From Psammoneis japonica (taxonomy: Eukaryota), in contig QPGO01000093.1 of NCBI GenBank assembly GCA_008632985.1, forward strand, positions 186,001-250,000: a DNA stretch of 64,000 nucleotides, given 5' to 3'. Below the pieces are notes generated by a model. That model saw only the letters and a program-made list of their open reading frames with translations. It searched no databases and was not told the DNA's origin. A program made the translations under genes and the position numbers. Position 1 is the first letter of the stretch; each line of letters opens with the position of its first letter. This document shows positions 2,381 to 63,112 of this stretch, piece after piece.

Positions 2381-2666
2381 TGGAACGGTGACGTCGACAA
2401 CGGCCCGCACGGGCTGGCGACCTAAGATCCATTCCGAATTCCATTCCCAGAACCAGATGATGACGTCGCTGTCACTTAAAGGGAAAAGATTGAAACATGC
2501 TTCCGTCTTCTTCGGACCACGTCGTCGGCACTTTCAACCACAAAGCCATGACCACATCAGCCCCAACGTTCGGAAATCTTTCACGACGCCACTGGATGGC
2601 CTCTAGGATTCGGCGTTGCTTTTTCCACCTCGCCGTTCATAATCTCAAGAACGAAAGCATAACGAA

Positions 2667-4043: not shown

Positions 4044-4202
4044 TCGCACAACCTGTCGCTCTTTTATGACACGACCCTGATATTCAAAATTTAAGGCATA
4101 GATTGACATAGATTCAACATTAATTTAGATTTAACAACACTTTCAACAAGACTGGTCACCTATTCAATCTCCCTGATACAATCAACCTGATACGTAACTA
4201 CC

Positions 4203-5222
4203 TTACACTTCCGGAGGAGGATTCTCCTGGAGCGTCATGGACGCTGTGTCGGCAAGATAATCCTTAAAGCCTTCCGACTTCTTTCCCGTTAGAGTTTCAA
4301 TGTCGTCCGAATAGGCCGATGCGTACTCCTCGACACCGCTCGCCTTGACTTGCTCAATATTGGCAAGATCCTTAATAACCCAGGCCGGAAAGCCACGCTC
4401 CTTGAGTTCATCTTCCAACTCGTGCTTACCGAGTGCCACATGTTCAATGGGCTTGTCGTAAAACTTGGAGAGGAGCTTGCAGACTTCGGCGTCACGAATG
4501 GGCCGTTCGGCCGTGAGCTGGTAGGTCTTGTTCTTGTGCTTCTTCTTGCTCACCAAGACATTGACTGCAGCCCTGGCCACAGAGTTGGGGCTCACGTAGT
4601 TGACGCCCATGGCGTACGAGGCCGTCACATACTTGGCACCTTCTTCTTCACGCATGGCAGCTCCTTGCTGGATCAAGGGAGTAGACATGAGATGCGACGT
4701 GCGCAACAACGTGTAAGTCATGCGCGATGGCATCGCAGGGTGACACAGGTGTTCGTCACAACCGCGATGAAACTGCACATAGGGGACGGTCTTGTTATAG
4801 TCATCACTCTGGTTCACCTCGTAAAAGGACATCTTGACAAAGTGCTCGACGTTGTACTTGCGACAAGCAGAAACAAACTTGTCGAAGGTAGCAGCTGTTT
4901 CCTTCATGCGAGGGAGGGTACAAAAGACAGACTTGACACCGGCAAGCGCCATTTTGTATTCATCCGCGTCGGTCCAATCAAAAGCGATGACCGTGGCGCC
5001 CAACCCTTCGAGCTCTTCAGCGACCGTCTGGCCAATGGAGTTGTCGACGTTGACCTGGCGTTCACCCTTCCAGATGCCGACACGAACTTCCTTATGCCCA
5101 GCTTCAAGCAACCCCTTGGCGACGCGGTGTCCGATCACGGAAGTTCCCGACATGATAAAGCATGTTCCCAAGTCCTCTTCGATCGTGACCCCCAGAGGGT
5201 CGAGTTTCTTCATAAAGGCCAT
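4203..5222 (-). CDS. NmrA-like atypical SDR / NAD(P)-binding protein
   Basis: FIMSGTSVIGHRVAKGL Rossmann-like motif, ALAGVKSVF, VEHFVKMS, NYVSPNSVARAAVNVL, KNKTYQLT. Start placed at MAFMKK. Confidence 0.8.
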   Translation of the reverse strand: MAFMKKLDPLGVTIEEDLGTCFIMSGTSVIGHRVAKGLLEAGHKEVRVGIWKGERQVNVDNSIGQTVAEELEGLGATVIAFDWTDADEYKMALAGVKSVFCTLPRMKETAATFDKFVSACRKYNVEHFVKMSFYEVNQSDDYNKTVPYVQFHRGCDEHLCHPAMPSRMTYTLLRTSHLMSTPLIQQGAAMREEEGAKYVTASYAMGVNYVSPNSVARAAVNVLVSKKKHKNKTYQLTAERPIRDAEVCKLLSKFYDKPIEHVALGKHELEDELKERGFPAWVIKDLANIEQVKASGVEEYASAYSDDIETLTGKKSEGFKDYLADTASMTLQENPPPEV

Positions 5223-7933
5223 GGTTGATGAGGTGTCGTTCCTGGATCTTCTTTTGTGACAACAGCGCAACCACGCAAGCTGGAAAACGAGAAAATCTTT
5301 TCTTCGTTCTAAAATCGTGTACATAGAATTTGTACCAGCAACTCACGTGCACTTGGTTTATAAAGCATGCAATGATGAAGAACAGTATAAAAATTTCAAT
5401 CGCGAGTGAACGTACCGGTAGGGCCTACGTAGCCCTACGGTATCTTTGCTACCGTACAGCATGGTACTGCACGAGCATTCAATCGCGCGAAACAGTCAAT
5501 GACTCAGCCGACTGAACGATTGACATCTGCCTGTGGACATTCGGATAGAGGGCAAGACCGGAGAACCATCGGTGAAAACGAAACAAGTCTCGAGCACACC
5601 GTTAGAGCGCCAAGCACTCCAACTTTCGGCTGAAACCTGGAGCAAAAATGAAAATTGAAGAAAAGTTGTGGGATGGCCGCTCTTGTTGATGTGCTTTTTT
5701 GTTTCCCGAGGGACAGGCAAAAAGACTGCCTTTCTGTGCCAGCCAGTCAGTCAGCCAGCCAGTCAGTCAGACTGTTGCCATCAGGGAGCATTTTGTGCTG
5801 CAGCTCAGATGTGGCAGAGCTGGTGGTTTTCTTGCAGATGGCTTGCCACCAAAAAGGAAGAGATGGGGGTGTCCTCAAAGCACTTGAGATTGACAAAAGC
5901 CCTGCAGCATGCAAAAGAGCAAAAAGCACTTGTCAGAGCAGGCCATCTGGGAAACAAACACTGCCTTTGACAAGTCTTTCATCCATGCCAAGCTTCAGCT
6001 TTTTGTGCCTTTGTTGACCACGCAACCCTGGCAGTTTCTTTGAAAAGCACAGCAGTGGCAACACACACCATTTGAAAATGCCCCTTGGGATCTCTTCAGC
6101 AAAGCAGGTGCGTCATTTCTGAGCAACACGCATCTTGCCAAGTGAGCTGAACACTGGGAAGATGCTGGTGCAGCTTTTTTTTTTCATTTGTGGCTCTGCA
6201 CATTGTGGCATGGGCTCTCATCAAGATGAGCGCCACTCTCCAGAGCTCATGTTTTCAGCAAAATGCTTGGTGTTGCTGATGCACACTCCAGCTCCAGGTG
6301 GGAATTTTTTTGAACATTTGTCCTGCAGAATTCTGCACGTGAGCTCTGCAGTTTGCACACTGGGTGGCAAACACACACATGAATGCTGCAACTCTTCATG
6401 TGCTGAACATTTTGGAAAACTCACAAACACAACACACCGGAGAACACAGAAGCTGCGTGACAAGCGTCAGAAGCTGTTTTCTTGAGTGGGGGTGGCCCAA
6501 CAAAATGGTGCCATAAACTGGCACAAAACAAATGTCTAAAGTTGAGCCACTGGGTGAGAAAAGAAGAGGGTTGTTGACATTGTGAAAGTTTCCATGACAA
6601 ACACATTGCCAGAAAGTGGAGAAAAGCTCTTTCTTGTGGCACACACTGACCCAAGCAGCAAACTGCTTGCTTTTGTTGCGGCACACGCAAGTGTGAAACT
6701 CAGTCAGTTTTTGTTGAAGACAAGGCCCATCCTTGGAAGCAAGGTTCTTCTCCCAGAGTTTGTGCTGATTTTGGATCCTCTTCTTGGCACAACTGCCCTT
6801 TGCTGTGTTGGTTTGGGTTCTTTGCATCCTCTCCAAAAGAAAAAAAACAACCTTGCTCTTGTGCAATTTCATCTCAACCAGTTGTCTCCAGTGTGTGTTG
6901 CTGCGAAGTGGTGCATTGACCACCAGATTGCATGAGCTTCCGCCGCACCCCTGGCGGCACACACTGGAAGCAAGTGTGGGGGTTGGCCAGTGCTGGCATT
7001 GCTGGGCAAAGGTGTGACAGCATGTAAAATCAGGTTTGAGCAAAGCTGGAAGCTGGAGTTTGATCAAAAAATCATTTCCTGGCTGTGCAATTCTTTGTGT
7101 GAGAAACTCTGGTTTGAGTTTTTTTTTGCTCAAGCACTTGCACGACAACCCTCTTTTTCTCACCCAGTGGCTCAGCTGCAGCTGTGGGGGCATGTGCAAA
7201 TTTTGTGTGAAGGTGTCAAAAAGTGCAAGATGTCACAGTTCCTCCCCACTGCAAGCCCTCCCACCTGGGAGAGCTGGAGTTCATGTCTGCTTGACAAGAT
7301 GTCATGAGGCTCACAGCTGATTTGCAATTTGCAAACTTCCACAGAGAAGAGCTTGTGACTTGGTGTCTGGCTTTGCTGCCATGGCCAAAGACAAAGCAGC
7401 AGCTCGCCCTTGCATCTTTGTGGTGTTCAAAGCAAAGTTGTGCTCTTCCCCAGCATCAGATGGAAAGCAGTGTGCTGTTGCAAGCAAAAGAGCCAGTGCT
7501 CATCTTTGAGGTGTTCCAAAGGTGTGCTCACAACATGGTTCATGGGCAAGGCTGTCACAAAAAAATGTCCTGTGAGCCAATCAACAAGGTCAGCACCCCT
7601 TGCATGGCTTTGCACACAGCAGACAGAAGCTGGCAAACCTGGCAGACACCTTCTTGCTTGCAAGCTCTGCCTTGTTGTCCAAAATGGAGAAACAAAAAAA
7701 ATGCATCCACAGAAAGGCAGAAAAAAGCAGCTCTTCATGTTGCTGCTCCTTTTCTTCAGGTGAAATTGTAAAAACTAAAATGCCAGTTTGAAGACATGCC
7801 AAATGTGCAAAATGTGGCAAGTTGTGTGAATGTCATTTCCACAAAAAACTCTGGCAAGCTCTGGAACAGGCCAGGTGCCAATCAAGGGCGGATTGTTGTT
7901 TTGTGGTTGATTTTGTTTAGAGTTCGCAGACAT

Positions 7934-42135: not shown

Positions 42136-42804
42136 CTATGTACTTGTCTTGTTTCTTTCTGTCGCTATCTCTTGCGCAATAAGGTCACGCCTTGCTTTCA
42201 TTAGCGCCCATCCCAAAATGTTGCAACCAGGAGCCCACGTTGCTGGATTTTGACAATCCGCGTGTCCAGCGGGCTTCCCTATACCCCAAATGACATCATT
42301 GCGAGCCGCCTCCACAATCAAGGCGGTACCCGTCTTGCATAACACTAGGAACTCTGCCTGTAAATGATAAAACTTTTGAATCACTGCTTGGTACGCAACT
42401 TGCAATATTACAGAATGCCACAGCTCCAAATCAAAGTTTTGCACACGGCGTCCCAGCTTCTTCGCTTCACCGGGTGTCATGCATTGTTGAATTTTTACAT
42501 ACGACTCAGCATCCCCCATTACGGCGGCCTTGCACAACATGATACTCTTTTCGGAAAAGGCAACCATCACCGTCTGCTGCAACTCTGAGTGCGGACAAGC
42601 CGCCTTCAGTTTGGACCAACACGAGTCGGGAACTCGAAAGGGAATCTCCTTGTGCGTATAAAAGTTGGAAAAGCTCTTAAAGGGTTGTTTCTTTCCGTGT
42701 CCATAAAAGTCAACCACATTTTGTGCGGAAAGCTCGGACCAGATAAGCTCATCAGGAGTTTGAGCGTCATGAAAGGGTGCGGGCGGAAGAGTTGCTGTGG
42801 ACAT
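42136..42804 (-). CDS. NADAR family protein (YbiA/RibX-like)
   Basis: FSNFY, SE..IMLCKA..MGD, PGEAKKLGRRV.NFD..W, VEAARND.IWGIG, GCNILGWALMKAR. Confidence 0.9.
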   Translation of the reverse strand: MSTATLPPAPFHDAQTPDELIWSELSAQNVVDFYGHGKKQPFKSFSNFYTHKEIPFRVPDSCWSKLKAACPHSELQQTVMVAFSEKSIMLCKAAVMGDAESYVKIQQCMTPGEAKKLGRRVQNFDLELWHSVILQVAYQAVIQKFYHLQAEFLVLCKTGTALIVEAARNDVIWGIGKPAGHADCQNPATWAPGCNILGWALMKARRDLIAQEIATERNKTST

Positions 42805-43278
42805 TGTGCTCTTTGTTAAGAGCTCAAAATGAATTGGTGAGTTTTGTGAGCTGATTGCTTCAGCCCGGATCCCAGTCGTGCATCATACTTCAGTCGTGAG
42901 TGGTTTGAAAGAAGAAAGAACAGCAAAGAACCCACTGCTGGTGAGCTACCGTTCTTATCTCCTTTAATTTTGCATAATTCTTTTTCGGGGTTGGTGCCCG
43001 GCGGTGGTTCAGAAACAATTCAAATCCAGCAATATCGATACTGGAAAATAGGCACAAGCGATCGAGGAGGTTTGCAAAAACGTAGCACAAGTGCCGAGAG
43101 AAGGATGCTACTGTAGGGTTTTCCAGTAAGCCCCTCCATCGACTTACTAGCCCTATCACACAACGATGTAGGATCAGGAGTAGTGCATAAGAGCAGAAGC
43201 AACTAGATGCACTACTGAAAGCTCTTAACTAACCCGAAAATTGAACATCAGAAGCGCATAATTCTGTGATAATTCGCA

Positions 43279-44123
43279 TCACATCCAACCCAAGGCTTTT
43301 GAGACCACGTCTGTCGCACTACCATCTGATACACATTCGCCATGAGCAATGATTAATTTTTTGGGTTTCCATTCCTCCACCACGGTAGTCCGAGCCGCAC
43401 GTGCCTTTCCTTTGCCTCCAAACAAAAAGCTGAATCTCCATTCTCTTGGAGTGCTTCCTTCCTTCCCAACTAGGCCGTCGAGCCTCTGGAAGGAATGTAC
43501 GTACAGGTAAAATGGTAGTCACAAATACTAGATACTCAATGCTAACAAGAGAAACACGTTTGTATCTCGTTGAAACTCACCATGAGGGTTCCTTTGAAGC
43601 CCGTCATTTCCTCCTCGGGAAATCGTTGAATTAAGTCACAAAAGATCGCCGTTTCTGATTTACGATGAAAGAATACCACTTCTTCCATAAAGAAGGACCC
43701 ATGAAATATGACTTGATCAATCTCTTGGTGAAAAGCAGGCGGTTCCGTTGTATCGTCGGAAGAATCCAACTGCTTGTCGAATCGAACGTCCGTGACTACA
43801 TTGCGCTTGGAAAGGCCAGGAGGAGCATAAAAGGTTGCCTCTGGAAAAGCATCTTGCCATTGTTTGAGAAATATATGATGAATCTTATTGGGAGATACCA
43901 CATGCTGGACTCGATTCAGTCCGAGTTGCTCGAGGGCCTCTGACAGTTCTTGCGTCAATTCAATCGGGGACCAAATCCAGGTGCTTTTGTCCTCTTCTAG
44001 CTGGATGACAACCATGCGAGTGGGGTATGGGAATCCAAAGAAACTCACGGTAGGGCCATCTACCACCCAAATACACGGACCAAACTCCTGCAAAAGAGGC
44101 GTCGCTGCCTCCGTCGTTGTCAT
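43279..44123 (-). CDS. DUF4336-family (metallo-beta-lactamase-like) protein, intron 43486-43580
   Basis: IWVVDGP...YPTRMVVIQL, VSPNKIHHIFL, EVVFFHRKSET.IFCDL. Exon 2 reads RLDGLVG...TPREWR...LIIAHG...ALGWM*. Confidence 0.88.
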
Positions 44124-44200
44124 CGTCGTCTCTTTGACACGCAGAAGAGTTCTCGTCTTCGCACCGCTTTTCTTGTGACACTCGTGACCCCAACTCGTGA

Positions 44201-45890
44201 CTAAAGAAGAAACATTCTGTCCTTCACAAAACGTCCAAGGATGCGTCCGATGTGCTGGATGCTAGTCGAGCAACAGGTCAATGAGCCAGAGCGGTGTCGT
44301 GTTGCCGGCGACTGCAATGTGCAATGGGAGGTGACTGCTCTTATCGATGCACTGGACTGCATCTGGGCAAACGTTCTTCTCCCACTTGCCCACTTGTCCT
44401 TGGATGCTCCTTCACTCAAAGTTTTCACAGCAGTTGTCCAAAACAGGATGTGGAGAGGAGTCATCCCATTGCCAACCTGAGCTTTCAGGGATGCACACAC
44501 TGTTCCATTGCAAAGTAACTCTCCACTGCCAAAATGTGGAACGCGTGACCATCTTGCCAATGCAAGGGGTCACCATGCTCAGCAGTGAGATGCAGGAGCA
44601 AGCTTCTTTCCATGCCCTGGAATTTCTGGGCATTTGGAGAGAAGAGAAAATGCTGTTTCATTTTTGGCACCATTTTTCAAAAGTGCCAGGTGCAGTGGCA
44701 AGCACTGCTGGCAGTCAGTGACTTGCAGTGAACCTTTAAATTCACCCACAAACAGATCAACCACAGGCTGATGTGGAGAGCCCATGTCTGCAACCAGGTG
44801 CAACGGAAGAGAACCACTTTTCTTGTTGGGCACAATGAGGCCAAGTGGGTGATCCTTCATGAGCTCTTGCATCATTTTGATCCATGTCTGATGCATCATC
44901 ACAAGGCGATGGCCATTTTGCTCCAACCATTCAAGCACTGTTGTGCCCATGTGGATTGGCAGATCCCCGAACTTTTGTTTGGCATGGGATTCCCTCAGGT
45001 GGCATTGCAGAACTCAACCAAACACACCCACATCACAGCAGCCAGTTCGGGCCAGAATGTGTGCAAGCAACAAAGAGCTGTTGTGTGCATCATGAGCATC
45101 CATGGGAGCTGCAAAGGCTTTTTGGTCTTTGGCGACACCCCCACAAGAATCTGCATCAGCTTGTGCATGGGTGGTTTGCTGCCACAGCAGGCACAATTCA
45201 ATGGCTCCACTGGTTGGAACAATCTGCCCCATCTGGACAGGAGCAGAGCAACAACTCCATGGCATTCTCATGGTGGAACATGTGGGCAGCACAATGAGTT
45301 GGCAAGTTTTCTTAAAAAGCAGCATTTTCTTGGCTGCTTGAGGCAGGATGTGCGTCTGACAGGAAACCAATCTTGGCAAAATTGGTCATTGACACCCAAC
45401 AAGCAAGGTGCAGGAGACATTCGTCAAGGGCATTGTGGACTTGCAAAGCCTCTGTGCAAATGCCCATGAGCCACTCAAGCACGGGCAATGAGACTGCATT
45501 GTTGGATGCCACCAGATGGAGTGGAAGTGATCCCTTGGACACCAAGATGAGGTTGCGGCCATCTTTGACTGTTGATGTGGATCACAGGTCTTTGTCAGCA
45601 CATGCACCACTGCTGCTTGCAGCAGCAGAGGATACAAAGAGGTGTCCTGCCATCTTTGGCAATGGTCAAGTCTCAGCCATGATGGATTTCTCCCTGCCAG
45701 TGCCTTGACTCATTGAATGTCATTGGCCAAAAACACCTCCACCAGTGGTTTGATCTTGGGATCGGCCAGCTGTGTGTGGTGGGCACCTTGCTGATTCATT
45801 CACATTCTTTGCTTGCTTCCTCTGCATCCTGTTTGACACTGGCAACAGTTGGTGCAATGATGATGATGGGCAGTCTGGTGCAAGCCATGG
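44201..45890 (-). pseudogene. Degenerate ankyrin-like (LPLH-repeat) gene inside a TpA-depleted island
   Basis: Fragments in several frames: GSLPLHLVA, QCLPLHLAL, GMTPLHIL, SHLPLHIAV. Positions expected to read YP appear as CP/HP (LLSKCPE, MKDHP). Stops and frameshifts are present. Confidence 0.75.
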
Positions 45891-46194
45891 TTCATTGTTG
45901 GCATTGGTGGATCTTTGCTGATGGGACTTGACGACGACACACCGGATCACTTTTCTAGCACCGGCAGGACTCGCACTGAACTCTTGTCCCTACAGTGCTG
46001 CTTACGTTGGGGACGCGGGCCGACGCGACTACGATCAAGTGGCTTCAAAATGGTTCAATCACCCCGTGAAGTGTAGTTGCTATTGAAAACAAAGTTTAGA
46101 GACTAGACAGACACACTAACTCCAGCAGAAAGCAGATTTTCCTTACTATGTAACAGGACAGCACTATACCACCACAACCGCGCTCTTGGTAACT

Positions 46195-47505
46195 TTAAGG
46201 TTGCTTCAATACTAGGCGATAGTGTCTCCATTGTGTTGGTCCGGCGCCTTCAGAGTACCCCAACTTTCGTAAGACAATATTACATGCGGATGGTCCAGAC
46301 AGCGGCTTGCTTCGACCTGCTTTCATTTGCAGAGACACGGTCTCAGTCGGAGAGACAAACAGCGAGTCAACAACAGGAAAGTTGGAGTTGCTTGGAAGAA
46401 GGTAACCGCCAGTTGGAAGTGTGCGTGCGATGCTGACGGCATTTTGGAATTGTGCACCAAGATCGTTGGTTGACAGCTTAACTTTTGGCAGTGACGCAGG
46501 GATAATGATCTGTTTGCTGCATCTTTCCATTCCAGTGGCAGTAAGCGATGTTGCTGCTAAATCGACTCCGTGTGCAATGATTTTATTGTGGGCGTATGCC
46601 TCATAGCGGATCCCTCTTAGAGTTCCATGCCTTTCCAACGTGCTGTCGTACAGACGCCACAATTCATGAGCCTCCTTTTCCATCAACTTGTCACGAATAC
46701 GGGCCCGAACATGTTCGCAAACAAGTTCGATCGTGTAATTTTCATAATCGGTGCCGCCATTTCCTAGTACAGCGGGTTGAAGAATATACAAAGACCAGAG
46801 GTGTTTGAATGCAGCCGTAACTTCCCCAGCATCAATTCGGAGCGGATTCTGTGCAATGTCATTGAGGGCGGCGGTTTGCTTCTCTTCCAAATGTTTCACC
46901 GGTGAATCAACACGATTAGCTGCAGGAGGACCATAAAATAGGTAGCGAGCTACGCCACCGATTTTTTGATAGCGGGTTTGCAGTAGATCTACCGTCACTT
47001 CCGAATAGCAAGATGCCCTCATATCTTCGGCTTCGTCCATCAAAAGAGTCCCCATGTATAATATGGCCTGGTTTCTTGTATCCTTTCGAAGCTTCCTACA
47101 GTTTTCTTCATCCGGCGATAAGGGGACAATGAATTTTTTCCTTTCAAAGACAGAAATGTGATCATCATTTGTGCGCCCTGTATTCTCATGGGGGTCGTAG
47201 AGCACGATATCAAATGAGTCTGATGGAATTTTAAAACTGCCATCAAGCACGGCAGTCAAGCTTTGTTCCGCAACTGTAATAGTGCCGCCACCACCATGTT
47301 TAAAAACAAAAGCTCTGCCACGCGGACCATGAAGATACAATACGTTCTTCCTATCATCATCGTAGAGGCAGCGATGGAGCGTATAGTCCAAGAAGCAACT
47401 CTTTCCGATACCTGGTGTTCCAAAGAGGAATATACCTTGGGTCCCCGCCGTCCAGCTGGTTTTGCACAATTCAAATAAATCTGGATAACAGGGGCGCACA
47501 AACAA
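46195..47505 (-). CDS. Crinkler/RHS-type protein, P-loop NTPase plus C-terminal restriction-endonuclease-like domain (5' end unclear, may be damaged)
   Basis: LFVRPCY, Walker A GTPGIGKS, IGGVARYLF, GIRYEAYAH, LPSNSNFPVVDSLFV...LQM. No in-frame ATG upstream before a stop near 47590. Confidence 0.75.
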   Translation of the reverse strand: MFVRPCYPDLFELCKTSWTAGTQGIFLFGTPGIGKSCFLDYTLHRCLYDDDRKNVLYLHGPRGRAFVFKHGGGGTITVAEQSLTAVLDGSFKIPSDSFDIVLYDPHENTGRTNDDHISVFERKKFIVPLSPDEENCRKLRKDTRNQAILYMGTLLMDEAEDMRASCYSEVTVDLLQTRYQKIGGVARYLFYGPPAANRVDSPVKHLEEKQTAALNDIAQNPLRIDAGEVTAAFKHLWSLYILQPAVLGNGGTDYENYTIELVCEHVRARIRDKLMEKEAHELWRLYDSTLERHGTLRGIRYEAYAHNKIIAHGVDLAATSLTATGMERCSKQIIIPASLPKVKLSTNDLGAQFQNAVSIARTLPTGGYLLPSNSNFPVVDSLFVSPTETVSLQMKAGRSKPLSGPSACNIVLRKLGYSEGAGPTQWRHYRLVLKQP

Positions 47506-48087
47506 TCTCGATTGAGAGAGAATGCAGAAAATCGCGGCTGCCAGGATTTGTAACCAAGCAGGCTCCCTCGACTCGAGAGCTCCATGTCGTCATCGTCAAA
47601 CGTTGTTGATTTCCTTCTCCCTCTTATACACCGGTGTCTCTCTCTAAGATAGTAATAATTTACGATGTTCGCGATGACGGAAAAACGGTGATTGATGATG
47701 CCAGCCATTGTGTATTGTGTGAGGTGTGAGACGAGATCTATAGATAGATTGAGACGTCCGTCCGTTGACGCTCAAAAAAGTGAGTCGCCGGGAACCCGGA
47801 ACGCATCATCGCCACATCAACATCGCGGGCGGTTTTGAGTTTCAAGTTTATGTCATTGCTTCCGAGCAGCACTGATTCGTTTGCAAAGACTTTTTCCGTT
47901 TCGCCTATCGCACTCATTGATAACAGTGGACTGTGGTGGAAACATCTTTTAATTGATTGATCCCCAGTGTGAGTTGAACAACGAGCACGGCGGGAAGAAA
48001 GCGCATTCTTATCCTCACTCTCGAACCGCGCGCTGTTCTCTTTTGCTGTTGCACCTCTCACGAGTCCCTTGTTTTTCATTTTTTCAG

Positions 48088-51502: not shown

Positions 51503-54389
51503 GCTCGCTGGTGTAAGCGTTGTGTTACCAAGAAATCAAATTCCGTTACAGTATTCTTTATTCGCGGAAGTGTGCGTTCCGATGCGGCGGTGATGGTGAT
51601 GGATGCTTTTGGCATTTTGACTCCGCTCCCAAGACTGAAATTTCATCCAACACGACTGAAATTACGCAATCAGTCTTATTCACGACTCGATTCGCTCATT
51701 GGCCACTTTTTTCTCAACAGGCAAAGCCCAAGAACTTTGTGGGTGTCAAATTTTTGTCTCAGCTCCATGTCACACAGACAACGAGACACAGCCGTCCAGC
51801 GAAGCGTCCAATTTTCAATTTCGCGCCACAAATTGAAACCTGACATCATCGATTTTTTTTGCTGCACTGCGGAACCACGTGCTGACCGCAGGAAAGACGA
51901 AAGACGTGCCTGGGTTCGCAGCACCAATTGCTTCCGCCAATTCCACCACCCAGGATGAGTTGAACTTCCTGCTTCTGCCCAGTCATGATCAGCTCCACAC
52001 TCCAGGCAGAGAGTCATCACAATCTTCAATCTGACCTTTTTTCTGCTAAAAATGGCAGAGGCAGAAGTTTTCACAAATGTGCCAGATTGACAACACACGG
52101 CCATGCTCACTTTGGGCAATGAAAAAGAGCAGGAAACATCGCTTCATCACCTTTGTGCTTGCAGATGTTTGCCAGACAAACTTGAATCAGCAATCTCTTG
52201 GTCGTCCACACCAACAAAGCCAGCTCACATCATTTCACTGTCTTGTCACAAGAGACTTTGCATTCCCGACACCAAGGCTGCTTTTCCACTCCAAAGTCTG
52301 CAGCCATGCATGCACCAAATGAAAGAGCAGCACAGAGAGAGCAGCTGCAAGGTCTGGCAGATGAGCTGGCTGCAACTTGAAGAAAGGTTTGTCCTTCTTG
52401 CCAATTTGCAACAAGCAGGCTCAACTGTCCACTTTTGACAAATGAGAGCAAATTGACATGCCCTGACTTGCCTTCCAGCCTCCAGCACTGACCTGCTCTT
52501 TGCACAAACCAAACCCGGCCATCATCTGGGTGTGGCCATCCAGACAATGTGGCAGGCATCATGACAAAACAATTGTGCCACACACACTGCTTCTTTGAAA
52601 TGAGGACAATGGCACTCTGCTTCTTTTCACCGCTGCAGAGAACACTTGACATCTGGTTGTTGAGTGGCTCTGCATGGAGCCTTTTTAGATGCCCAGTGTG
52701 GATGTGCCACCATGGCAGTGCAACAAAAAGACATCCTCATGTTCACACAACACAACAAAATTGGCAAAGCAGGAGACAACAATGGGCAAAACCAGAGGTT
52801 GATCTTGTCAATTGTCGCTTTGTTTGTTGGCTGGAGTGTGCCAACAAGTTGATTTGTTTGCTCTTGAATTGGTGTGCATTTTGTGATTTTGGTTTTCAAT
52901 GATGTTTGCTTTCTCTGCCCTGGCAACATTTTGCATTTGCAGTCAGTCTCACATCTTGGCATTCTTGGCTGTGCTGATGTTGCACCTTGCTTCACAATCT
53001 TTCATGTTTCCAGAAGAGTCATTTTTTGTGACAGCTTCTCATTTTGAGGCATGGCAGCAGTCACTGGCAGAAGCCAGTGGAGAAGTTTTGTCAGCTTGGC
53101 AATGTGGTTTTTCAAGTGTGGCTCAATTTTGTTGCTGCAGCTCAGCTGTGCAGCATTGCAGCACTGTGTTTTGCTCTTCCTTGGCTGTTTTTGTTGGCTT
53201 GTCCAAGTTGGAAGAAACAAAAAATCTGCAAAAGCATCAACTCAATTTTTGCTGCAAGCACTGAGCACTGTCTTCTCCCATGTTGCACTCTCTTTTCTGA
53301 TCATTTGCCATTCCTGTGGATTGTTTTTGCTGATGTGTGCAGAGTCATGGGGTTTGTTGGTGCCTTCCTGCAATGTCAACATTGCTCATGTGCCACTTGG
53401 GTGCATCATGTGTTTTCATGTTGTTTTGTGTGGCAGTCATGACACGCCATTGTTGCCATGGAGCCAAGCCAGTTGGCCTGGCAATCTCAATGCCTGCATC
53501 ATTTTGCAAGTGGTCATTTTCTGTGGGCCATTTGTCATGCTCATTTTTGAAGTTTCTCACCAAGCAGTTTGAGTCAACCCAAATGAACCAGTTTGTTGGT
53601 CTTCATTGGCAATGCATTTTTTGTGAGCTCTGAGCTCTCATTTGCTTGCCAGCTGGATGCCAGCATTGTTTCAATCAGATGCAGCACATCTGTTTGCAAA
53701 AAAGGTTGGTGTTTCAGTTTTTGTGACCTTGGCCAGCTCTTGTCAAGAAAAAAATTTTCACTTTTGTGCAGTTGTGTCCAGCTGGTTTGTGCATGTGTCT
53801 GTGGGGCTTCTGATCCACACATGATGCACACAACAACCTTTGCCTTTGTTGCCATTGTGCCGCAGTCATGTTTGAAACTTGCAAGCAGGAGGTCAGAAAA
53901 TGTCACAGACTTTGTTGTGCACAGCAGGTGGTCATGGATGGGGAGCTGGTCAAGCAAGAGGAGGTTGGCTGGGCACCACTGCCAGAGCAGCAGCCCCCAG
54001 AGACATTTGGGCACTGCATCTGCAGCACCTCCTTCTGCCGGTGTTCCTCCTCTCTGACAAGTGGTTGCCTTTGCCAGCATGGTTTTGTGCTGCCTTCCAT
54101 GTCACTTTGATGTCCAGGACAGTGCAGACTTGAGTTTCCCAGCTCAAGAGCAAACAAGCAGCCCAGCAGCAGAGCCCCATGATGGCAACACCTGAGAAAC
54201 CAACCCAACGAGCAACAGCAGGCTGAGGGCACTGATTGTCTCTGGCAGATCCCAAACAACACTTTGAGAGCTGTGTCTGAGCAGCACAAGAGTGCCAGCA
54301 TGGCGCAGCTGTGCACCCTGTCATGTCCTTCTAGCCAGAAGCAGCACACTTCAAACTCCCAAGTCCAGAATTAAAGGACCCTGCAGCAG

Positions 54390-54900
54390 TGCCAGCCAAC
54401 CTGAGAACAGCAAGCTGAGGAGTTTTTGGTTCTCTGGTGGATCTCAGGTGACACTGCAACAACCATGGTTGAGCAGTGCAAGGCCTGTTTGTGTGGTTGT
54501 GGCCCCCGCATCACCTTGTCCCCACACTGGCAGAGCTGACCTCCAAACTCAACAGCAGAGGCCACATGGTGGTGCCAGCCAACCCAACAGCCACAAGCTG
54601 AGGACACTGGTGGCAGTGCCTGGCAAACCTGCAAGGTTGATCTTCTTGTGGCGTTGTGACCCCATGTCACCTTGTTCCCAACAGCAACAAAAGCAAGCTT
54701 CCAAACTCCACAGTGAAAGGACTCCTGTGATGGATGACAGCACCAATGAACTTGACAAAAGCAAGCTGAGGACACTGGTGGTGTCTGGGAAACCCCAGGT
54801 GAGACCTTTGAAAACTGTGGCCAAGCATTGCAAGGTTGATCTTGTGGCATTGTGGCCCCTTGTCACCTTGTCCCCAACAGCAGCAGACTTGAATTTTCAA
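54390..54900 (+). repeat. Three diverged ~170-185 bp tandem units
   Basis: CAAGCTGAGGA at ~54411, 54594 and 54762. TCACCTTGT(C/T)CC at ~54511, 54667 and 54863. Confidence 0.7.
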
Positions 54901-57236
54901 ACTCTGCAGTGGCTGGCTTGTTCAAAGGTTTGATTGCTGAATGACAGATGGTGAGCAAACTTCAAAAGGCAGTGCACCAACCATGTGAGAAGAATGGAGA
55001 AATTTGCAGCAGCTCTTTTGAAATGAGTTTCTCTTTGTTTGAAACAAACAAGAGCTGTGGCAACTGGTCAAGCCATTCACCATTTCGTCCTGGTCTAAAG
55101 CTCCAGCAAGACTGGATCTCATGGGAGGATCAGCTGGGGCATGGTGAGTTGGAAATGTGAAACAAAGCTTTGTTGTTGCATGTCACACCCAAATTTTGAA
55201 GGCTGAAAGCCTTTTGTCAATCTTTCCTGCCACAAGTGGTTGTCAAGCAAGTCTTTGTTCAATGTCTCATCATTGACACTGCTGCTGCAATGTTCCACAA
55301 ATCATCCCTGCCTGCCTTTGCACAAAGACCCCCAATGTCAAACAGGCTTTCTGTCACCAAAGCCTTGGTGGCAACTGCCACTCATGCAGTCCAGGCCCTG
55401 GAGCCAGGCACACAGAGAGCACTTGTCTTTCTCTCCGACAAGCAAATTGGCACACCTGCACTTTGACAAGCACAGCATCTAAACAACCTTCTGCAGTCTT
55501 CCACAAGAGACAGCAGCACTGGCACACTTGCACAGATCAATGATGTGCTGACAAATCATGGTGGCTGCTTGACCAGAAGGCAAGGATTCAAGTTTGCAGT
55601 TGTGGTGTCTGTCAAAAGGGGCTTGGATCAAAATGAGGAGCTTGTTTTGAGAGGAGAGTCTCTCCATTGTGTCAGAAATGTGACAAGGACACCAGCACAC
55701 CACCATTGTCATGCAGACAGCTGATCAGCAGCTGAGTTGTGTGGTGCCCAATGCAAGAAAGAGACAAGTTCAGCAAGAACACCAAACAAGTGCAGCTGGT
55801 GAATGATCCAAGAATGCTCTTCCAAACAAATGAGTCAACTCAAAACAAGATGCTGGACTGCAAAACAAAACATTGCAGATCTGCGACAGCTGGAAACATT
55901 GACTGTCAGCCCAAATGACAACTTTGGCAATGCCAGATTTAGCAGCTGAAAATGTGCCAGTGTCAAAATGTTGTTTGGAGCCCAAATGACATTGACCACC
56001 TTCTTGTGGCTGGTTTTTCAAAAATTGTGACATCTGCTGTGTGGACAGTGCAATTGCATGTGTGTGAAGCTCATTTCTTGTCAATTGAGATTGCAGATGA
56101 CTTCTCTCTGGAGCAGAAAACAAAGCAGTGCATGTCTGCCCCGCTCACAAAACAAGTTGCAGAACATTGCAGCGGCATCTTGCAAGCACCAGCATGACAA
56201 AAGAGGCCAGCAACAAGCACAACAGACAATGCAAGAACCCTCATGCACCAAGGAGTTCTCTTGGGAGCTTGTTGCAGGCTGCTCCCAAAGAAACAAGTTC
56301 AACCAAGACCAGCTCAATTGGCGCTCCAAGTTTTTGAGCACTGTCACCTGCTGAGCAGAAAAATGAGCTGCTTCACTTGCTCCAGCAAGCAGAGCACACT
56401 CTTGCACTTGCCATTGCTGTCAAGAGGCTGACCAATGCAGCGCGGCACTCCTTGTGATGCACACAGAGCTCAGATGGCAGCAAGCAACAAAACAGCCAAG
56501 AGAGAAGTCTTTGTCCTTCTGTGCAATGGGCTGTTGATGGCCTGTTCAGCTCCAGGTGATGAGCTTTTCATCATGCAAGATTTTCTCCGCAGTTTTCAGC
56601 ACCAGACATTTTTGTCTCCACCCAGCAGAGCTCGCACTTTTTGGCTTTTTGTGAACATCAATCACTCCAATGATGCAGCACATTTGTGACATTGATGCTC
56701 ATCTTGAACAACTGAGGTGCACATTTCATCACAGGAAGAATCGTGTCAGTTGGCATTTGATGTTGTTCTGGCAATGTGCAGAACAATGCTGGCTTGCATG
56801 AACATGTGCCATCCATGTCAAAAGGCCCAACACACAACACCAGCCACAATGCAGCACACTGCTGTCGCTGCTCCACAACCCCCTCTTTGCCCTTGCGGTT
56901 GCATGGAACCATCTGTTCCTTTCATTTCAAAGTCATGCCATTGTCATCACAGTGCAATTGCAGCTCCACAGAGTTGCCATCATTGTGGACAACACCATCT
57001 CTTTGCATTCTCTTGTTTGGAATTCAGCAAGTTGATTTATCATGTTGTTGTTTGCACATGTCACCACATGCATGTTTTTTTCTGGTTGCTTCTCACGTCT
57101 CATTTTGTGGTTGTTTTGCACCAGAGCATTTGGAGTTTCCACCAAACACAAACATTTGCCCGAATGTTTTCTGAACAACAGTTGCCACTGGAACAAACTT
57201 GTCTTGGTTTGTTTGCACTGTGACGCTTGCTGTTTG

Positions 57237-57480
57237 TGCTTTCCAGCATCTGGAACTGCTTTGGAGGCTGCCTCTGATCATCTGCATCACTTTTGCAGTG
57301 ACTGATGTTGCCCCCCTCTCTGGAGTGCATTTGTTGCACAAGCAGAAAGTGTGGCTTGCTGTTTGGTGCTTTCCAGCATCTGGAAATGCCTCAGAGGCTG
57401 CCTCTGTTCATCCGCATCACTTTTGCAGCAACTGACATTGCCCCCCTCTCTGGAGTGCATTTGTCGCACAAACAGGAGTG
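57237..57480 (+). repeat. Tandem duplication, ~130 bp period
   Basis: TGCTTTCCAGCATCTGGAA...CATCACTTTTGCAG...TTGCCCCCCTCTCTGGAGTGCATTTGT occurs twice. Confidence 0.9.
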
Positions 57481-59849
57481 CAAAAGCAAGCGCAATTGCC
57501 ATGGACACATTGGCCAAAGCAGCTGCCAAGAAATGTCAAGGAATGACTGGCAAATTCTTCCATTGGCGGCAGTTCCCCTCAAACAAACAACGACTCTTCC
57601 AGCCCACTGAAGGTGTCCTTTTGCACCCAGCATTGTGTCCAGGCACTCAAGGAACATTGCCCGCTGCAGGGCAAAGGCAGAACTTGGCACACTGGACCTC
57701 TCCAAGATGCGGTTGATCCCCTTGCGTGCCCACAAGGTCTTGTGGATTTGAGCATCTTGACCATGGAAGATCATGAAACCAAGAAGACCAGCCCTCTCTT
57801 TCAACTTCTTTGTCAGAAGAATGGTTTCAATGGGTTCAACAGCTCCAAAACACAGAACATGTTCTGCAGTGCTGTTGTCAATTGGTTTTGTCAAACATCA
57901 GACTTTTGGGAGCAACCACTTGCTGAAGGATCTCCTGGAGGCAACAACCATGTTGCTGAGCATTTGCCACAATGCCAAGCGCCAATTCCACAATGAATCT
58001 TTGGTCAACATTCAAAACCCAGAAACACGCGATCCTGAAAAGTCAACCAAAGATTTGAGGGTGAATGTGTGGCTGCCTTTTGGCAATGTCATGCAAAAAA
58101 GTTGGTGGCAAATTAAATCTGTGAAGGGAACAAAGAACCATTTTGAAATGATGGCTTTGAAGGGATTGCATGTCAAGTTCCACTGTGAAACAAGTCATCC
58201 TGTTTTATCTGCAAAACAGCACTGGGGTTCAATCATTGACCATCACTCTGTTCCAAACGAAATCGCTCAGAGGAAGCAGGTGGACAAAAAGCTGCATCGC
58301 AAACCATGCCTCAACCATGAGAAGTTGAAGAAGGGCCATGTGGACAGCAACCATGATTGCATTTTTCATGACAAGCATTGCAAAGGGAGAAGGTTGAACA
58401 GTCGGACGATGACATGGAGGAAGATCCCTGCATTGCCAAACTTCCCACCGACATAAAATGCAAAGTGCCCATCTGTTGTGCGATGGGCTGCCAGAGGATT
58501 TTCCCATTTGGGCCATGTGACCCCAATGAGACACTGCCATTGGAGGCATTGTTTGACTTTGTTGCAGTTGGTGGCACAACCAGCATGTGTTGCAGCTTCC
58601 CTCTGGTGATGAAGACAAAGACTGTCAGTGTCCGCCGGACCAGCTGTGCAAGCCTCCTGCACCGCAATGACACTCCAAGTTGGTGGAGGCCATCACCAAC
58701 AACAAACACATCTTTGAAGTTCACTTCCCTGATGGACCAAGAAGGAAGGACTGCCACAAGGAGCTGCTGTCCCAGACTTGCATGGCATGAGTTTTGCAGA
58801 AGGATTTGTTGCCATCATTGCATGGATCACACTTTCAGCTGGGATGCAACAATGAAGGCAGAGTTGGAGGATGAAATGGAAGAGGTGAAGGAGAGCACTG
58901 AAGAGATGGATGAAATGGAAGCGGGAAGGAGGGCACTGAAGAGATGAATGACCTGCAACAGGCCAAGGCTGGCACTGCAACATTGCCGCTGCAAGACAAA
59001 AACGATGAGGAGCAAGATCAAGGTGGGGCCATGGATGAATCAACTGAGGATGAGGAGGAAGATGAAGACAAGGAAGAGGAAGATGAAAACAAAGACAAGG
59101 CCACAGAAGACTTGGCACTCAAAGACACAAAGGCAGGGAAGAAGGAGAGAGTGGGAGACGTGTCACAGACACCAGATGGATCTCATGAAAGACATCACTG
59201 GAGTGAGCAATGACGATGATCTCATTGGCCTTTGCAGCTCAAGGTCAAAAAGCAAAGGCAAAAGGAGCCACTGCATTGTGTTGGTTGAGCAAAAACCAGC
59301 AACACAAAGAAGAAAGGGATTGACTCAAGCGTGAGTGCAAAGATGCTCAAGTGATGTTGCGGGTTAAAAAACTCACTTGAATTGACCCAAGTTCATGGAG
59401 CACCAGGCGTCAGTGTCCTGGTGATTCTAAAGGAGCTGTTGCTCACTTGTTTGGTTGCTTTCAAGAATGGAACAAGGGTGTCATGTTGTGGGATCCGTGG
59501 TTTGATGTGCACTGCAATGAAATGAATGGCCATCCCATGGACATGTGTGTGGGCCTCATTGTTCATGCTGAACACAAACCAAACATTCCCAAGCAACTAA
59601 GTCGAAAATGCTTGAACAAGATCAAGGCCAAGGTGGATTAGATTTGCAACCCGCCACAGATTGCCAAACTCAAGAGATTGACTGAAGCAGAGATGCAAAA
59701 AGTTCCACCTGTTTTTTGGGGTGCTGATTTCACAGGTTGCAGCTTGGAGGGTGACCGTCCATTCTGTGTGACCCTGGATTGAGCTGAGTGCAATTTCAAG
59801 TTTTGGTTTCCAGATGTGTGGAATGATTGAAAAGTTTTAAAGCCATTGG

Positions 59850-60400
59850 ATGGTTGCTGTTTGCTTGTTGCCAGAAGGAAACGTGCCAATGCCATTGAAC
59901 AGTGACTTGCCGATGAGCAGCCAACCTGTGAAACTCATGCAAGAACAAAGTGACACTTGCATTTTTTTGTCCCTGGCCAGTGTTCTTGATCATGCTGGCA
60001 ACCTGGAAATGAGGGGCTGTGTTGCTTCTCACATCCAAACATCTGCCAACAGCACTGACTCTGACAACAAGCACATGTTGTTTGCAAAGAACATGTCGAA
60101 TGGTCGTTTGGAGGGAAAATTCCCGCCTGTGAACTCAAACATGAGGTTTTGTGGCAATGTCGATCGAACAATTTCCTTGGAAGTGGGTGGTGAATTTGAT
60201 GTGACGACCCTTGATGATGACTTCATGACTTTGTGCTGTCTTGTGAATGACCACTGCATTGCCTGGCACTGTGATTGGATCTTTGATTCCAACCACCATT
60301 TTGCATTGCCAGCAAAGGACATCAAGGGCTTGAATTGGTGTCTTGGAAACAAGGAACATGAGGTGAAGTGCATGGCAAAAAGCGTCTGCAACAAGTGTTC
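59850..60400 (+). pseudogene. Decayed coding remnant with a possible papain-like Cys/His/Asp motif set
   Basis: Q...TCIFLSLASVL...NDHCIAW..DWIFDSN..FALP...LNWCLG. It follows acidic low-complexity remnants at ~58850-59130. Confidence 0.4.
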
Positions 60401-62083
60401 ATGGTGCATCAGTTTGAACTTCCAAGGGTGGTGCAGCTGCAGGTGTGTGGCAAAAGGAAATTTTTTTTGTGTTGGATGATTCATCCAGTTGTGCAATTCA
60501 AAGCAACAAACACAGTGTTGGTTTGTTTTCCCATTGCCATTTTGTTCATCAGACTCATCTCTGTCACTGCTGTCCCCTGCCGTGCTCTCATCCTCCTCCT
60601 CATGGTCAGCTGATGCAGTGTCCTCCTTGTCATCATTCTCTCCCTCCACTCATCAGTTTTGCTGTTGTGATCCTCCTCCTCCTCCTCCAAACAGTCCTCA
60701 AAACAATCCATTGCCTCCCGCTGTTGGATGGCATCCACCAGAATTCCTTCATGCTTGTCATCACTCAAATGACATGGATCAAGAAGTGAAGCCTCGTTCC
60801 TGTTGCACATGCTTGGCAGCTCCAGAGAGGCTGATGGTTCATCAAGCTCAGTGTTGGCAACTGCAATTTGCTTGAGCAACACTCATGTCTGACATTCCTC
60901 AGCATCGCCAGGAGTCCACCATCCTCTGGCCCTTGGAACAGGGCTCAGATGTGTTCCCTTGCAAACCCACTCACCAGCCTCAACAGTTGTGGGTGGGTCA
61001 AACTCTTTCCACACCTTGTTCTCCTGTGCTTTGTGGGGGAGTTCATCCCATTGCAGCAGACAAAAGCCCTCCTCAGATTCACAAGACAATGTGGCACAGC
61101 TGTTTGCAGCAATTTCCTTTGCCATTTTTTGTCAGTCAAGAAGTCCAACACAGATTTGTGAACCAACTGCACCTTGCCCCCCCCCCCCCCCCTGTTCTCA
61201 CAGAGCGGCGGGCAGATGCCCCTCACTTCTCAACATCCTCGTCATTGACAAATGCAAGAGTTCCCACCTGCATCTCCCTTCTCTGTGAGATGGATGTTGT
61301 GTGCATGGAGGCTGAACTCGACAAGGCCAGATGGATGATTCAAGTCCAATTAATCAACTCAAATCGAATGTGACGTCAGCTCGTGCTGAAAAACTTGGCG
61401 AGCGCAATTGAGTCGTGATGTCCATTGCACTGAGTTATCCCACTGGGATGCCACAGGCAAACGTGTCACTCACAGAAATCAAACAGCCCCCAATGTGAAG
61501 CTCGTGATTTTCATCGCTTGCCCGCCCCATCAATCAACACTGAACACGGGAAACAACATGACTTTGTTCTCACTTCTCGTTCATCAGGTGCTTTGTGAAG
61601 GGAAGTCAGCGCTGACCGGCTGCTCTTTCGTCTGTGATTGCACGGAAAGACAATGGCAGTGCGAACGCTCAACACTGACATGGCGGGCCGGCAGTTGACA
61701 AAGCTGGTGCTTTCTAAAAAAGAATGTGTTGGATTGGGACGAGGAGTTTCTACTTTTGATGCTCGTCGGGTGCGGCCCACCTGCACAAATGTCACGTTCT
61801 CCTTGTGCGTCAATCAAGAATTGACCCAGAATCCTTGAGTCAGGACTGGGTTGAAAAACGACTTGCTCCTTCCCCCCCCCCAAACTTTTGTGGCTCAGCG
61901 GACGCCTCACCAAACCTTTGTGTTTGGACCATCAGAGATGGACGTCTCGACCCATCTGTTCTTTATGTTTTTTGTTCGTTTTTCCCTTTCGTCTGCCCAA
62001 AAGAAACTCACAAACTCATTTTCTCCTTGCGTCTCTCAACAGATTGTTGTGCACAATGTTGGTGAAGAAGCTCGTAGGCAGGC

Positions 62084-62731
62084 GATGCTTTCAAAATTTT
62101 GGGAATTGCATTTTTGGATCAAGCTCGCATTCACACGGATCGGTGTCATGGAGGAATTGAAGGCTCGTTTGGTGGAGAGGGAAACAGTCAAGTCGACACG
62201 AAAGCAAGCAATGGTGCTTTTCATGGACACTGTCAAGAAACGGCTGAAATTCGATCGTAAGACTGACAAAAAGGCAGCGCGCAATTACACAGGCAGTGGC
62301 CACAAGGAAGGAAATTAGCCCCACCTTGCACTCTGGAAAGTTGAGTCCGGAAATGAAAGCCCATGTTGACACCATCACAAAGGCGATGGGCAAGTCACAG
62401 AATTGTCCAGTCTTTCAGGGTGCAGTTCACCGGGGTGCCAACATTCGTGGTGCACATTTCAATTTGTTGCGTCCTGGAGCCACCTTCATGGACCCGGCTT
62501 TTGTGAGTGCCTCTCTGAAAGAGACTGTTGCTTGTGGTTTTCGTGGAAGCAAGAATGCACTCTTCAAGATTGAAAGTCCATCGGGTGTAAACGTGACAAA
62601 GAATCCAAAAACAAAGCTGAGTCAGAAATTCTTTTTCGACCTGGCACTGTGTTCATGATCACGGCGGTTGAGGAACATGACGATCCCGAGTGCGGAAAGT
62701 GGAAGTTTGTTTCAATGCGGGAGATTCATTG
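62084..62731 (+). pseudogene. ADP-ribosyltransferase (ARTC, R-S-E clade) pseudogene with two frameshifts
   Basis: AARNYTGSGHKE, then VHRG, FMDPAFVSASL and LFKIES..G.NV, then AESEILFRPGTVFMITAVE. A GGAA duplication lies at ~62306-62313 and a shift at ~62603. Confidence 0.82.
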
Positions 62732-63112
62732 ATTTTGGTGGAAATTGTCAGAGACGGATGCAGGTTTGGATTTAGAAGACAATGGCAACTGCAGAAAACT
62801 TCCCGCTCTCTCCATCTGGAGGTGAGGTCTTGGGGGCCCATGTGGCACAGACAGGAGTGCTTGTTCCTGTCGCAGTGTGTGTTGTTGGCTGAGAAAGTGT
62901 GCTGGTGACATTCTCAGTTGTCGTTCATTGTTTTCGCTCGCATTCTCTTTGTTGTGTTTGATTGCTTAATTTGCGCCCACCCTTCCATCGGATCCATCTT
63001 GCGGCTTGCACTGCAAACCCCAGCAGTGTTCCGGGGGTGGCAAACACAGATTGGTGGGACTCTTCCACGTCATGAGCAGTGGACTCATTCACACTAAAGA
63101 CGTGTTCCAGCT

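Follow-up and report, generated by a model that had tools for sequence, protein, structure and literature searches.

The window analysed here, a 64,000-nucleotide stretch of a contig of Psammoneis japonica, contains between two compositionally normal genes a short island that has lost nearly all its TA dinucleotides and that consists of one broken gene body and about 130 upstream bases (Table 1). The broken gene carries LPLH-type repeats, which span approximately positions 45793 to 44256 on the minus strand behind a likely start codon at 45799 or 45805, and its outermost repeats, up to 44256, are matched by other proteins of the family. When its longest open piece was searched against 1.84 billion representatives, the sole match colinear beyond the repeats was P0015, a 420-aa protein from a JGI contig, named ankyrin repeat protein and 38–45% identical to the island. 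The gene resembles ankyrin-repeat genes in this colinearity, as P0015 itself passes the Pfam Ank_2 cut-off (PF12796, 70.5 bits against 27.3, E 2e-19), and differs from them in being broken, its best piece reaching only E 0.024 against Ank_2. Diatoms and a haptophyte are the sources of its named relatives, and together with the gene content this marks the genome as diatom-like. The coincidence of the island with an LPLH-repeat gene, proposed by an earlier sequence-only reading, is therefore confirmed. That reading had also called the gene erased. It is dead, given at least three frame changes detected by tblastn (about five by eye) and at least four in-frame stops (TGA at 45712, TAA at 45314, TGA at 45016, and TAG at 44264), but as a statement of cause the word goes too far, since a TA to TG/CA change alone cannot create a stop codon, and the frame damage may have come before or after the TA loss. 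At the 3' end of the gene, between 44261 and 44123, the frame of the last ankyrin repeat continues, stop-free, into the start of the adjacent DUF4336 gene, and a contig of run X2 begins at 44155; the ankyrin gene may have lost its own stop.

Table 1. Features of the island and its surroundings (positions in the window).
Feature	Position	Strand	Remarks
95-base GT..AG intron of DUF4336 gene	43486..43580	-	joined form in contig of run X2
First coding exon of DUF4336 gene, TA- and CG-normal	43581..44123	-	PF14234, E 7e-15
TA-erased, TG/CA-enriched island	44231..45932		core 44373-45932 also CG-depleted; on the left TA loss extends farther by some 140 bases or more
Broken ankyrin-repeat (LPLH-type) gene	44256..45805	-	colinear with P0015 residues 7-398, E 9e-47
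Core CG read as CA in run X1	45422..45423	+	one of 12 CG left in core
Upstream stretch inside erased block, about 130 bases	45806..45932	-	putative leader or promoter
Intergenic DNA right of island, TA-normal	45933..46194		16 TA and 15 CG in 45931-46200
Open RHS/Crinkler-like P-loop gene	46195..47589	-	TA o/e 0.64, CG o/e 0.94
Nearest other erased block, repeat-derived	51678..63095		52000-56000 has 220 genome matches; same sequence signature as island

On both sides the flanking genes had been described as normal, and their TA and CG contents indeed are. The DUF4336 match has an E value of 7e-15, and the joined form of this gene in a contig of run X2, a run not on record as RNA, indicates that it is probably transcribed. 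The Crinkler-like identity of the other neighbour comes only from matches below curated cut-offs (TIGR01631, E 1e-6; an Atlas feature score of 0.97 to a CRN cluster). Contigs of run X2 cover both flanking genes and not the island, a gap in contig cover that provides no evidence on expression. Other TA-normal genes in the window include a NADAR-domain gene (42136-42882, PF08719, E 4e-30) and a pair of open genes between two erased blocks (2643-5342), which on inspection look alpha/beta-hydrolase-like and NmrA-like.

From 44230 to 45930 the sequence contains 6 TA where 67.4 would be expected from the normal DNA of the window (Poisson P 8e-22), an observed/expected ratio (o/e) of 0.06 against 0.58. 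CG is also scarce, with 22 occurrences instead of 99.4 (P 7e-21; o/e 0.20), and CA/TG is enriched (o/e 1.87) at a GC content of 0.50 that is still host-like. Approximately 137 TA plus CG have been lost from the core (44373-45930) and approximately 147 TG plus CA gained. The coding strand has 188 TG and 180 CA, that is, no strand bias, so both strands have been affected. Change-point analysis (90% ranges) places the left edge at 44073–44353 for TA and 44312–44420 for CG, and the right edge at 45882–45987 and 45874–45932, respectively. The right edge is sharp for both dinucleotides (around 45932–45956), while on the left the CG-poor core begins around 44373 and the loss of TA and gain of TG/CA extend to around 44231 or beyond. 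The confinement of TA depletion to about 1.7 kb, which the sequence-only reading had recognized, agrees with these change-points; as an account of the composition, it captured the loss of TA and overlooked the parallel loss of CG. Over 4101 bases, the sole difference listed between run X1 and the assembly is a change from CG to CA in the core (45422..45423), a single event and hence weak evidence.

Segmenting 194 kb of the contig into two states yields 14 erased blocks that amount to 43% of the sequence, the remaining 57%, intergenic DNA included, being TA-normal. The island is isolated among them, since the closest block on one side ends at 17711, 26 kb away, and the closest on the other begins at 51678, 5.7 kb away. 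It nevertheless has the same trinucleotide profile as the three large erased blocks of the window, at least one of which is repeat-derived. In all 14 blocks the TA o/e is at most 0.08 and the CG o/e ranges from 0.11 to 0.65, a combination of uniformly low TA and variable CG that fits TA having been lost first. One erased block, of 3.4 kb, contains a repeat of about 1.08 kb (C94:106995-108080, L107) with 45 other matches of 72–89% identity and shared ends, probably a non-autonomous element or a solo LTR. Live genes are spared and dead ones affected, as would be expected if a mutation pressure acted on the whole genome and the neighbours kept their TA by purifying selection alone. However, the intergenic DNA just right of the island is TA-normal (16 TA in 270 bases), so that coding selection does not explain the sharp right edge, and the same holds for the intergenic part of the TA-normal 57%. 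This explanation is largely refuted and retains almost no probability. The process is sharply bounded and its target is a host-type gene and not a transposon, as had been proposed.

Comparison with P0015 reveals the corresponding changes at the protein level. None of the eight Tyr of P0015 aligned to the island is retained and five are now Cys (two) or His (three), in agreement with the expected shift from Tyr to His/Cys; the companion expectation of Ile turning into Met or Thr found no case among eight aligned Ile, a count of low power. Likewise, none of 17 aligned Arg is retained, and seven are now Cys, His, Gln, Trp, or stop, as expected from CG loss (P0015 residues 213-240, where the island shifts frame, were left out of the count). 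Over its 396 matched codons the island has no Tyr, 1.3% Arg, 6.6% His, and 4.3% Cys, compared with 2.1%, 5.7%, 3.1%, and 1.7% in P0015. Differences reachable by loss of TA or CG alone number 29 of 176 between the island and P0015 and 12 of 176 in a control pair, which has fewer opportunities given the TG/CA enrichment (Fisher P 0.007); the other 147 island–P0015 differences are not explained by either loss. The motif expected to read YP reads CP or HP in all four island matches, as claimed, yet these variants are also natural in the family: among 370 matches in 110 family proteins the residue is Y in 223, F in 61, H in 55, and C in 31, which makes 86 natural C/H (23%); P0015 itself, moreover, has HP at the position of one of the island HPs.

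The proposal that the process hits multicopy genes and is guided by homology fared less well. Searched against the genome, the whole island matches only itself at the DNA level (E 0.001), as does its 5' end (E 1); this search skips very common words, and applied to two repeats it returned 220 and 46 matches down to 65–72% identity. A 4.1-kb stretch around the island lies within one unbroken 12.6-kb contig of run X1, a run that may be the source of the assembly. Neither an unmutated allele nor an empty site occurs in the contigs of runs X1–X3 (one sample), and these runs and the metagenome scans yielded no syntenic unmutated allele or close orthologue: the scan with P0015 returned no relative and that with the RHS-like neighbour a single 1.8-kb contig with 29 matched residues, which was set aside. 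No long repeat exists within the island, whose own repeats are too diverged to pair. Comparing repeat copies with one another was nearly uninformative, showing only TG/CA swaps, because all copies are already erased.

At the protein level the family is large, with dozens of open-frame members in the genome that are approximately 24–40% identical to P0015. Among 100 of 127 candidates scored, P0015 has 72 matches, the first and third of which are pieces of the island. The 52 other family loci, counted after removal of second matches in one gene and still including a few that look like allelic twins, have a median TA o/e of 0.55, with one locus below 0.15, three below 0.30, and 49 at or above 0.30, in a search that, made with the open-frame protein P0015, favours open-frame members; none has a CG o/e below 0.4. 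A multicopy target is therefore not supported, as the island has no DNA match in the genome but itself and its family is distant and almost entirely TA-normal. Protein search with the best mutated piece yielded one paralogue, of 28% identity and TA-normal, and the second-best P0015 match, a gene on contig C14, was discarded as a parent because it is not among the best tblastn matches of the island. Some genes of the assembly have an identical or nearly identical twin on another contig (L119/L120 and L096/L097), which suggests that some second haplotypes are included. A second isolated erased block was also detected (C94:258745-260888, L113; TA o/e 0.08, CG o/e 0.64), with frames of 297 and 238 codons that have no Pfam match; the part searched, 258700-260000 (1301 of its 2143 bases), has no DNA match but itself.

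Contig C10 provides an internal control. The two most TA-poor family members form an inverted duplicate pair there, 70 kb apart and with no third copy in the genome (L064:6222-9057 and L066:4665-7606; 82–86% identical; TA o/e 0.09–0.22 at the match). They retain most CG and long open frames (696 and 594 codons), which shows that TA loss can precede CG loss and heavy frame damage. A transition separates the two copies at 28 of 54 TA sites, compared with 45 of 183 CG and 65 of 460 AA/TT sites, and there are 29 opposite changes of TG/CA against four of GT/AC. The direction of change, from TA to TG/CA, is visible in a 217-column flank where 12 of the 15 TA of one copy are TG or CA in the other and one CG has been lost. 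One ankyrin copy adjoins a CG-poor patch and the other shows none. The adjacent gene (524 codons), included in the same duplication, is more similar between copies (65 differences in 1872 columns, 96.5% identity) and keeps 45 shared TAs, with seven of 58 TA changed and no opposite TG/CA (P 6e-6 compared with the ankyrin pair). Being duplicated was hence not enough at this site, even if this neighbour may owe its sparing, at least in part, to selection or gene conversion. Present-day duplication looks neither needed nor sufficient. The C10 duplication also contains, beside the affected ankyrin gene, a TA-normal 707-codon frame with C5 cytosine methyltransferase motifs recognized by eye (L066:2232-4352).

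Repeat-induced point mutation (RIP) of ascomycete fungi is among the closest known processes: it changes C:G to T:A, mostly at CpA, creates TpA, requires a duplicate, and operates during the sexual cycle with enzymes of the RID/DNMT4 type. The process described here resembles RIP in being a local transition hypermutation at one dinucleotide that affects both strands, has sharp edges, falls mostly on repeats, and inactivates genes; it differs in that TpA is destroyed (TA o/e 0.06, CA/TG o/e 1.87), that no duplicate of the island was found in the genome, and that a 96.5%-identical duplicate elsewhere was spared. A RIP-like recognition of homology would imply that a near-identical duplicate was present at the time of mutation and was later deleted or is missing from the assembly. 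Such a view could invoke the C10 ankyrin genes, the other clearly affected members of the family, which are a duplicated pair with both copies affected, and the repeat-derived nature of most erased DNA in the window. It has to face not only the lack of a DNA copy of the island in the genome and its unbroken contig in run X1, but also the duplicated neighbour of the C10 pair, which is more similar between copies and retains 45 shared TAs, the erased C94 block that likewise matches only itself over the part searched, the divergence of the island's own repeats, and the single-copy target described in the considered sections of the work on the alga Bigelowiella natans (see below). We consider it unlikely, and homology-guided targeting is not supported by these data.

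The sharp edges that closely match the gene could also be insertion ends, the gene having moved here by transduction, as a retrocopy, or as transposon cargo after or during mutation in a repeat-rich place, or a seeding transposon having been lost later. In keeping with this, the RHS/Crinkler-like group that includes the neighbour has links to mobile elements. Unlike a transposon or retrocopy, however, the island has no terminal inverted or flanking direct repeat of at least 10 bases at its edges (shorter target-site duplications would fit the data), no poly-A tail in its sequence, and no further copies; inspection by eye and a repeat search detected no Helitron, MITE, or retrocopy ends. There is no parent copy in the genome either, where the island itself is the best match to P0015. 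Moreover, protein matches fill the sequence from 45793 to 44256, no DNA match exists for what is left on the 5' side, and at the 3' end the limits of TA loss and CG loss do not coincide. A relocated gene or a lost transposon seems to us quite unlikely. Still less probable is a viral gene marked as foreign. Ankyrin repeats are common in giant viruses, which would favour this origin. Viral genes are also often methylated (PMC12344493). Nonetheless, the named relatives of the gene are from diatoms and a haptophyte, the genome holds dozens of open-frame family members, the GC content is host-like (0.50), and a search of viral_contigs, which detects close relatives, found none. An origin of this kind, proposed for the targets in B. 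natans, is highly improbable here.

We think it probable that the island is a silenced, CG-methylated, single-copy host gene that was mutated in place by a TpA-specific A-to-G change, combined with a slower decay of CpG. According to this model, the single-copy ankyrin-repeat gene would have fallen silent and turned into a short domain of CG methylation, its limits set by the active regions of the two neighbours. TA would then have been changed into TG or CA in place, nearly to completion, by a rapid conversion of A to G confined to TpA and acting on both strands, most simply through deamination of DNA adenine by a putative TadA/ADAT-type enzyme followed by replication. Methylated CG would have decayed to TG or CA more slowly, with TA presumably going first and CG second. 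The targeting cue would be the silent chromatin state and not DNA homology. Loss of CpG points to methylation and would fit methylation-guided targeting, the other possibility raised by the sequence-only reading. The words that survive in the erased blocks of the 194 kb (TTAA 0.58, CTAA/TTAG 0.28, CTAG 0.18, and the other seven NTAN classes below 0.09) indicate that A followed by T or C changed most.

Paralogues of the RHS/Crinkler-like neighbour count in favour of a silent domain, since this live gene is spared and its broken paralogues are TA-erased. Four broken paralogues (L124-L129, L131; on C24, C32, C2, and C13), located in erased blocks of approximately 2.5–7 kb, have TA o/e values of 0.00–0.15 and read Tyr as Cys/His in 9/15, 8/13, 7/7, and 0/4 cases, whereas a distant open paralogue is TA-normal with 0/16. 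The mirror image of the ankyrin island also exists, namely an open RHS-like gene that constitutes a TA-normal island of about 2.4 kb with erased DNA on both sides (L130, C32:364565-368683). Isolated CG-methylated islands are characteristic of diatom methylomes in the sections considered of PMC9998398, and the loss of CG to TG/CA in island-like domains resembles the decay of methyl-CpG and of such CG-methylated transposable element (TE) islands; the present case is unlike methyl-CpG decay in that TpA loss is deeper and seemingly earlier and the target is a host gene and not a TE. Methylated genes of eukaryotic origin are in most species overwhelmingly TE-domain genes (PMC12344493), so that a methylated ordinary host gene would be the exception, which counts against the reading we favour.

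The same pattern might arise with no adenine deaminase at all if mismatch repair using a polymerase-eta-like enzyme made errors near the T:G mismatches left by methylated CG, as TA and CG loss occupy the same domains and TA loss slightly exceeds the CG core. Polymerase eta prefers WA sites, which also speaks for this route. AA, however, shows no depletion (its o/e is 1.12 in the island, 1.22–1.31 in the repeat blocks, and 1.15–1.18 in normal DNA), transitions between the C10 copies affect 65 of 460 AA/TT against 28 of 54 TA sites, and TA has disappeared from blocks where most CG remains. Repair of this kind is a very unlikely source of the pattern.

An exon-by-exon search of the genome for candidate enzymes of adenine deamination yielded five matches, corresponding to four distinct deaminase genes (TadA-like, ADAT2-like, dCMP-deaminase-like, and one fused), and no clear ADAT3. 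Nothing sets the four apart from a usual housekeeping complement, the TadA-like and ADAT2-like genes being those expected for tRNA editing, and any action on DNA is putative. The fused gene (L121:319-1791, on C79) combines a zinc deaminase domain with a second domain that, from its motifs, we take to be a 2-oxoglutarate/Fe(II) oxygenase. An engineered enzyme, the TadA8e adenine base editor, leaves an off-target signature of A-to-G changes with a preference for TA sites (PMC13225742, in the sections considered), thus sharing with the process proposed here the A-to-G/T-to-C changes and the TA preference; its natural counterpart in this genome is putative.

In the literature searched, which included few subscription papers, we found no description of this TpA process in diatoms, and the only one in print concerns B. 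natans, where integrated NCLDV and virophage DNA undergoes TpA hypermutation (Mettrop et al., bioRxiv 10.64898/2026.01.13.699255). In the sections of that preprint considered here, the viral stretch under hypermutation exists in a single copy and is silent; the authors also catalogue coding sequences that are poor in TpA and have host-type domains, and suggest a deaminase of the ADAT2 type as the enzyme. The TpA-poor genes listed for that alga may include host pseudogenes. Both cases share the change from TpA to TpG/CpA, its action on both strands, its local character, and a single-copy target (here, one with no copy found in the genome). On the same partial basis, they differ in several respects: new mutations were measured in B. 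natans, a rhizarian alga, while here the process is deduced from scars in a diatom-like genome; its viral inserts of 25–186 kb have lost TpA partly (Rho 0.45), whereas a 1.7-kb host gene is reduced here to an o/e of 0.06; the loss is accompanied here by CpG loss and extends over 43% of 194 kb, whereas those sections report no CpG loss; and its target is viral or foreign, in contrast with a host-type ankyrin family with diatom relatives and no viral relative found in our search.

The central question about the process is what aims it. To this question the locus adds a gene-shaped target for which no duplicate or transposon was found, plus a spared duplicate that serves as a control. A 1.7-kb host gene with no copy or transposon found and erased along its whole extent, together with the sparing of a near-identical duplicate elsewhere, suggests silent chromatin rather than homology sensing of the RIP kind or a role that is antiviral alone. 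If a natural DNA adenine deaminase is responsible, adenine base editors would have a counterpart in nature, and epigenetic silencing a path to permanent gene loss. A broader version, which we put forward tentatively and regard as possible though doubtful, is that this lineage has DNA adenine editing recruited by silent chromatin alone, such that any host gene that is switched off, even if single-copy and far from transposons, would be rewritten at nearly every TA, being struck while its frames are still largely open. If true, reversible silencing would be converted into permanent gene loss, and the turnover of large gene families would be driven in this way.
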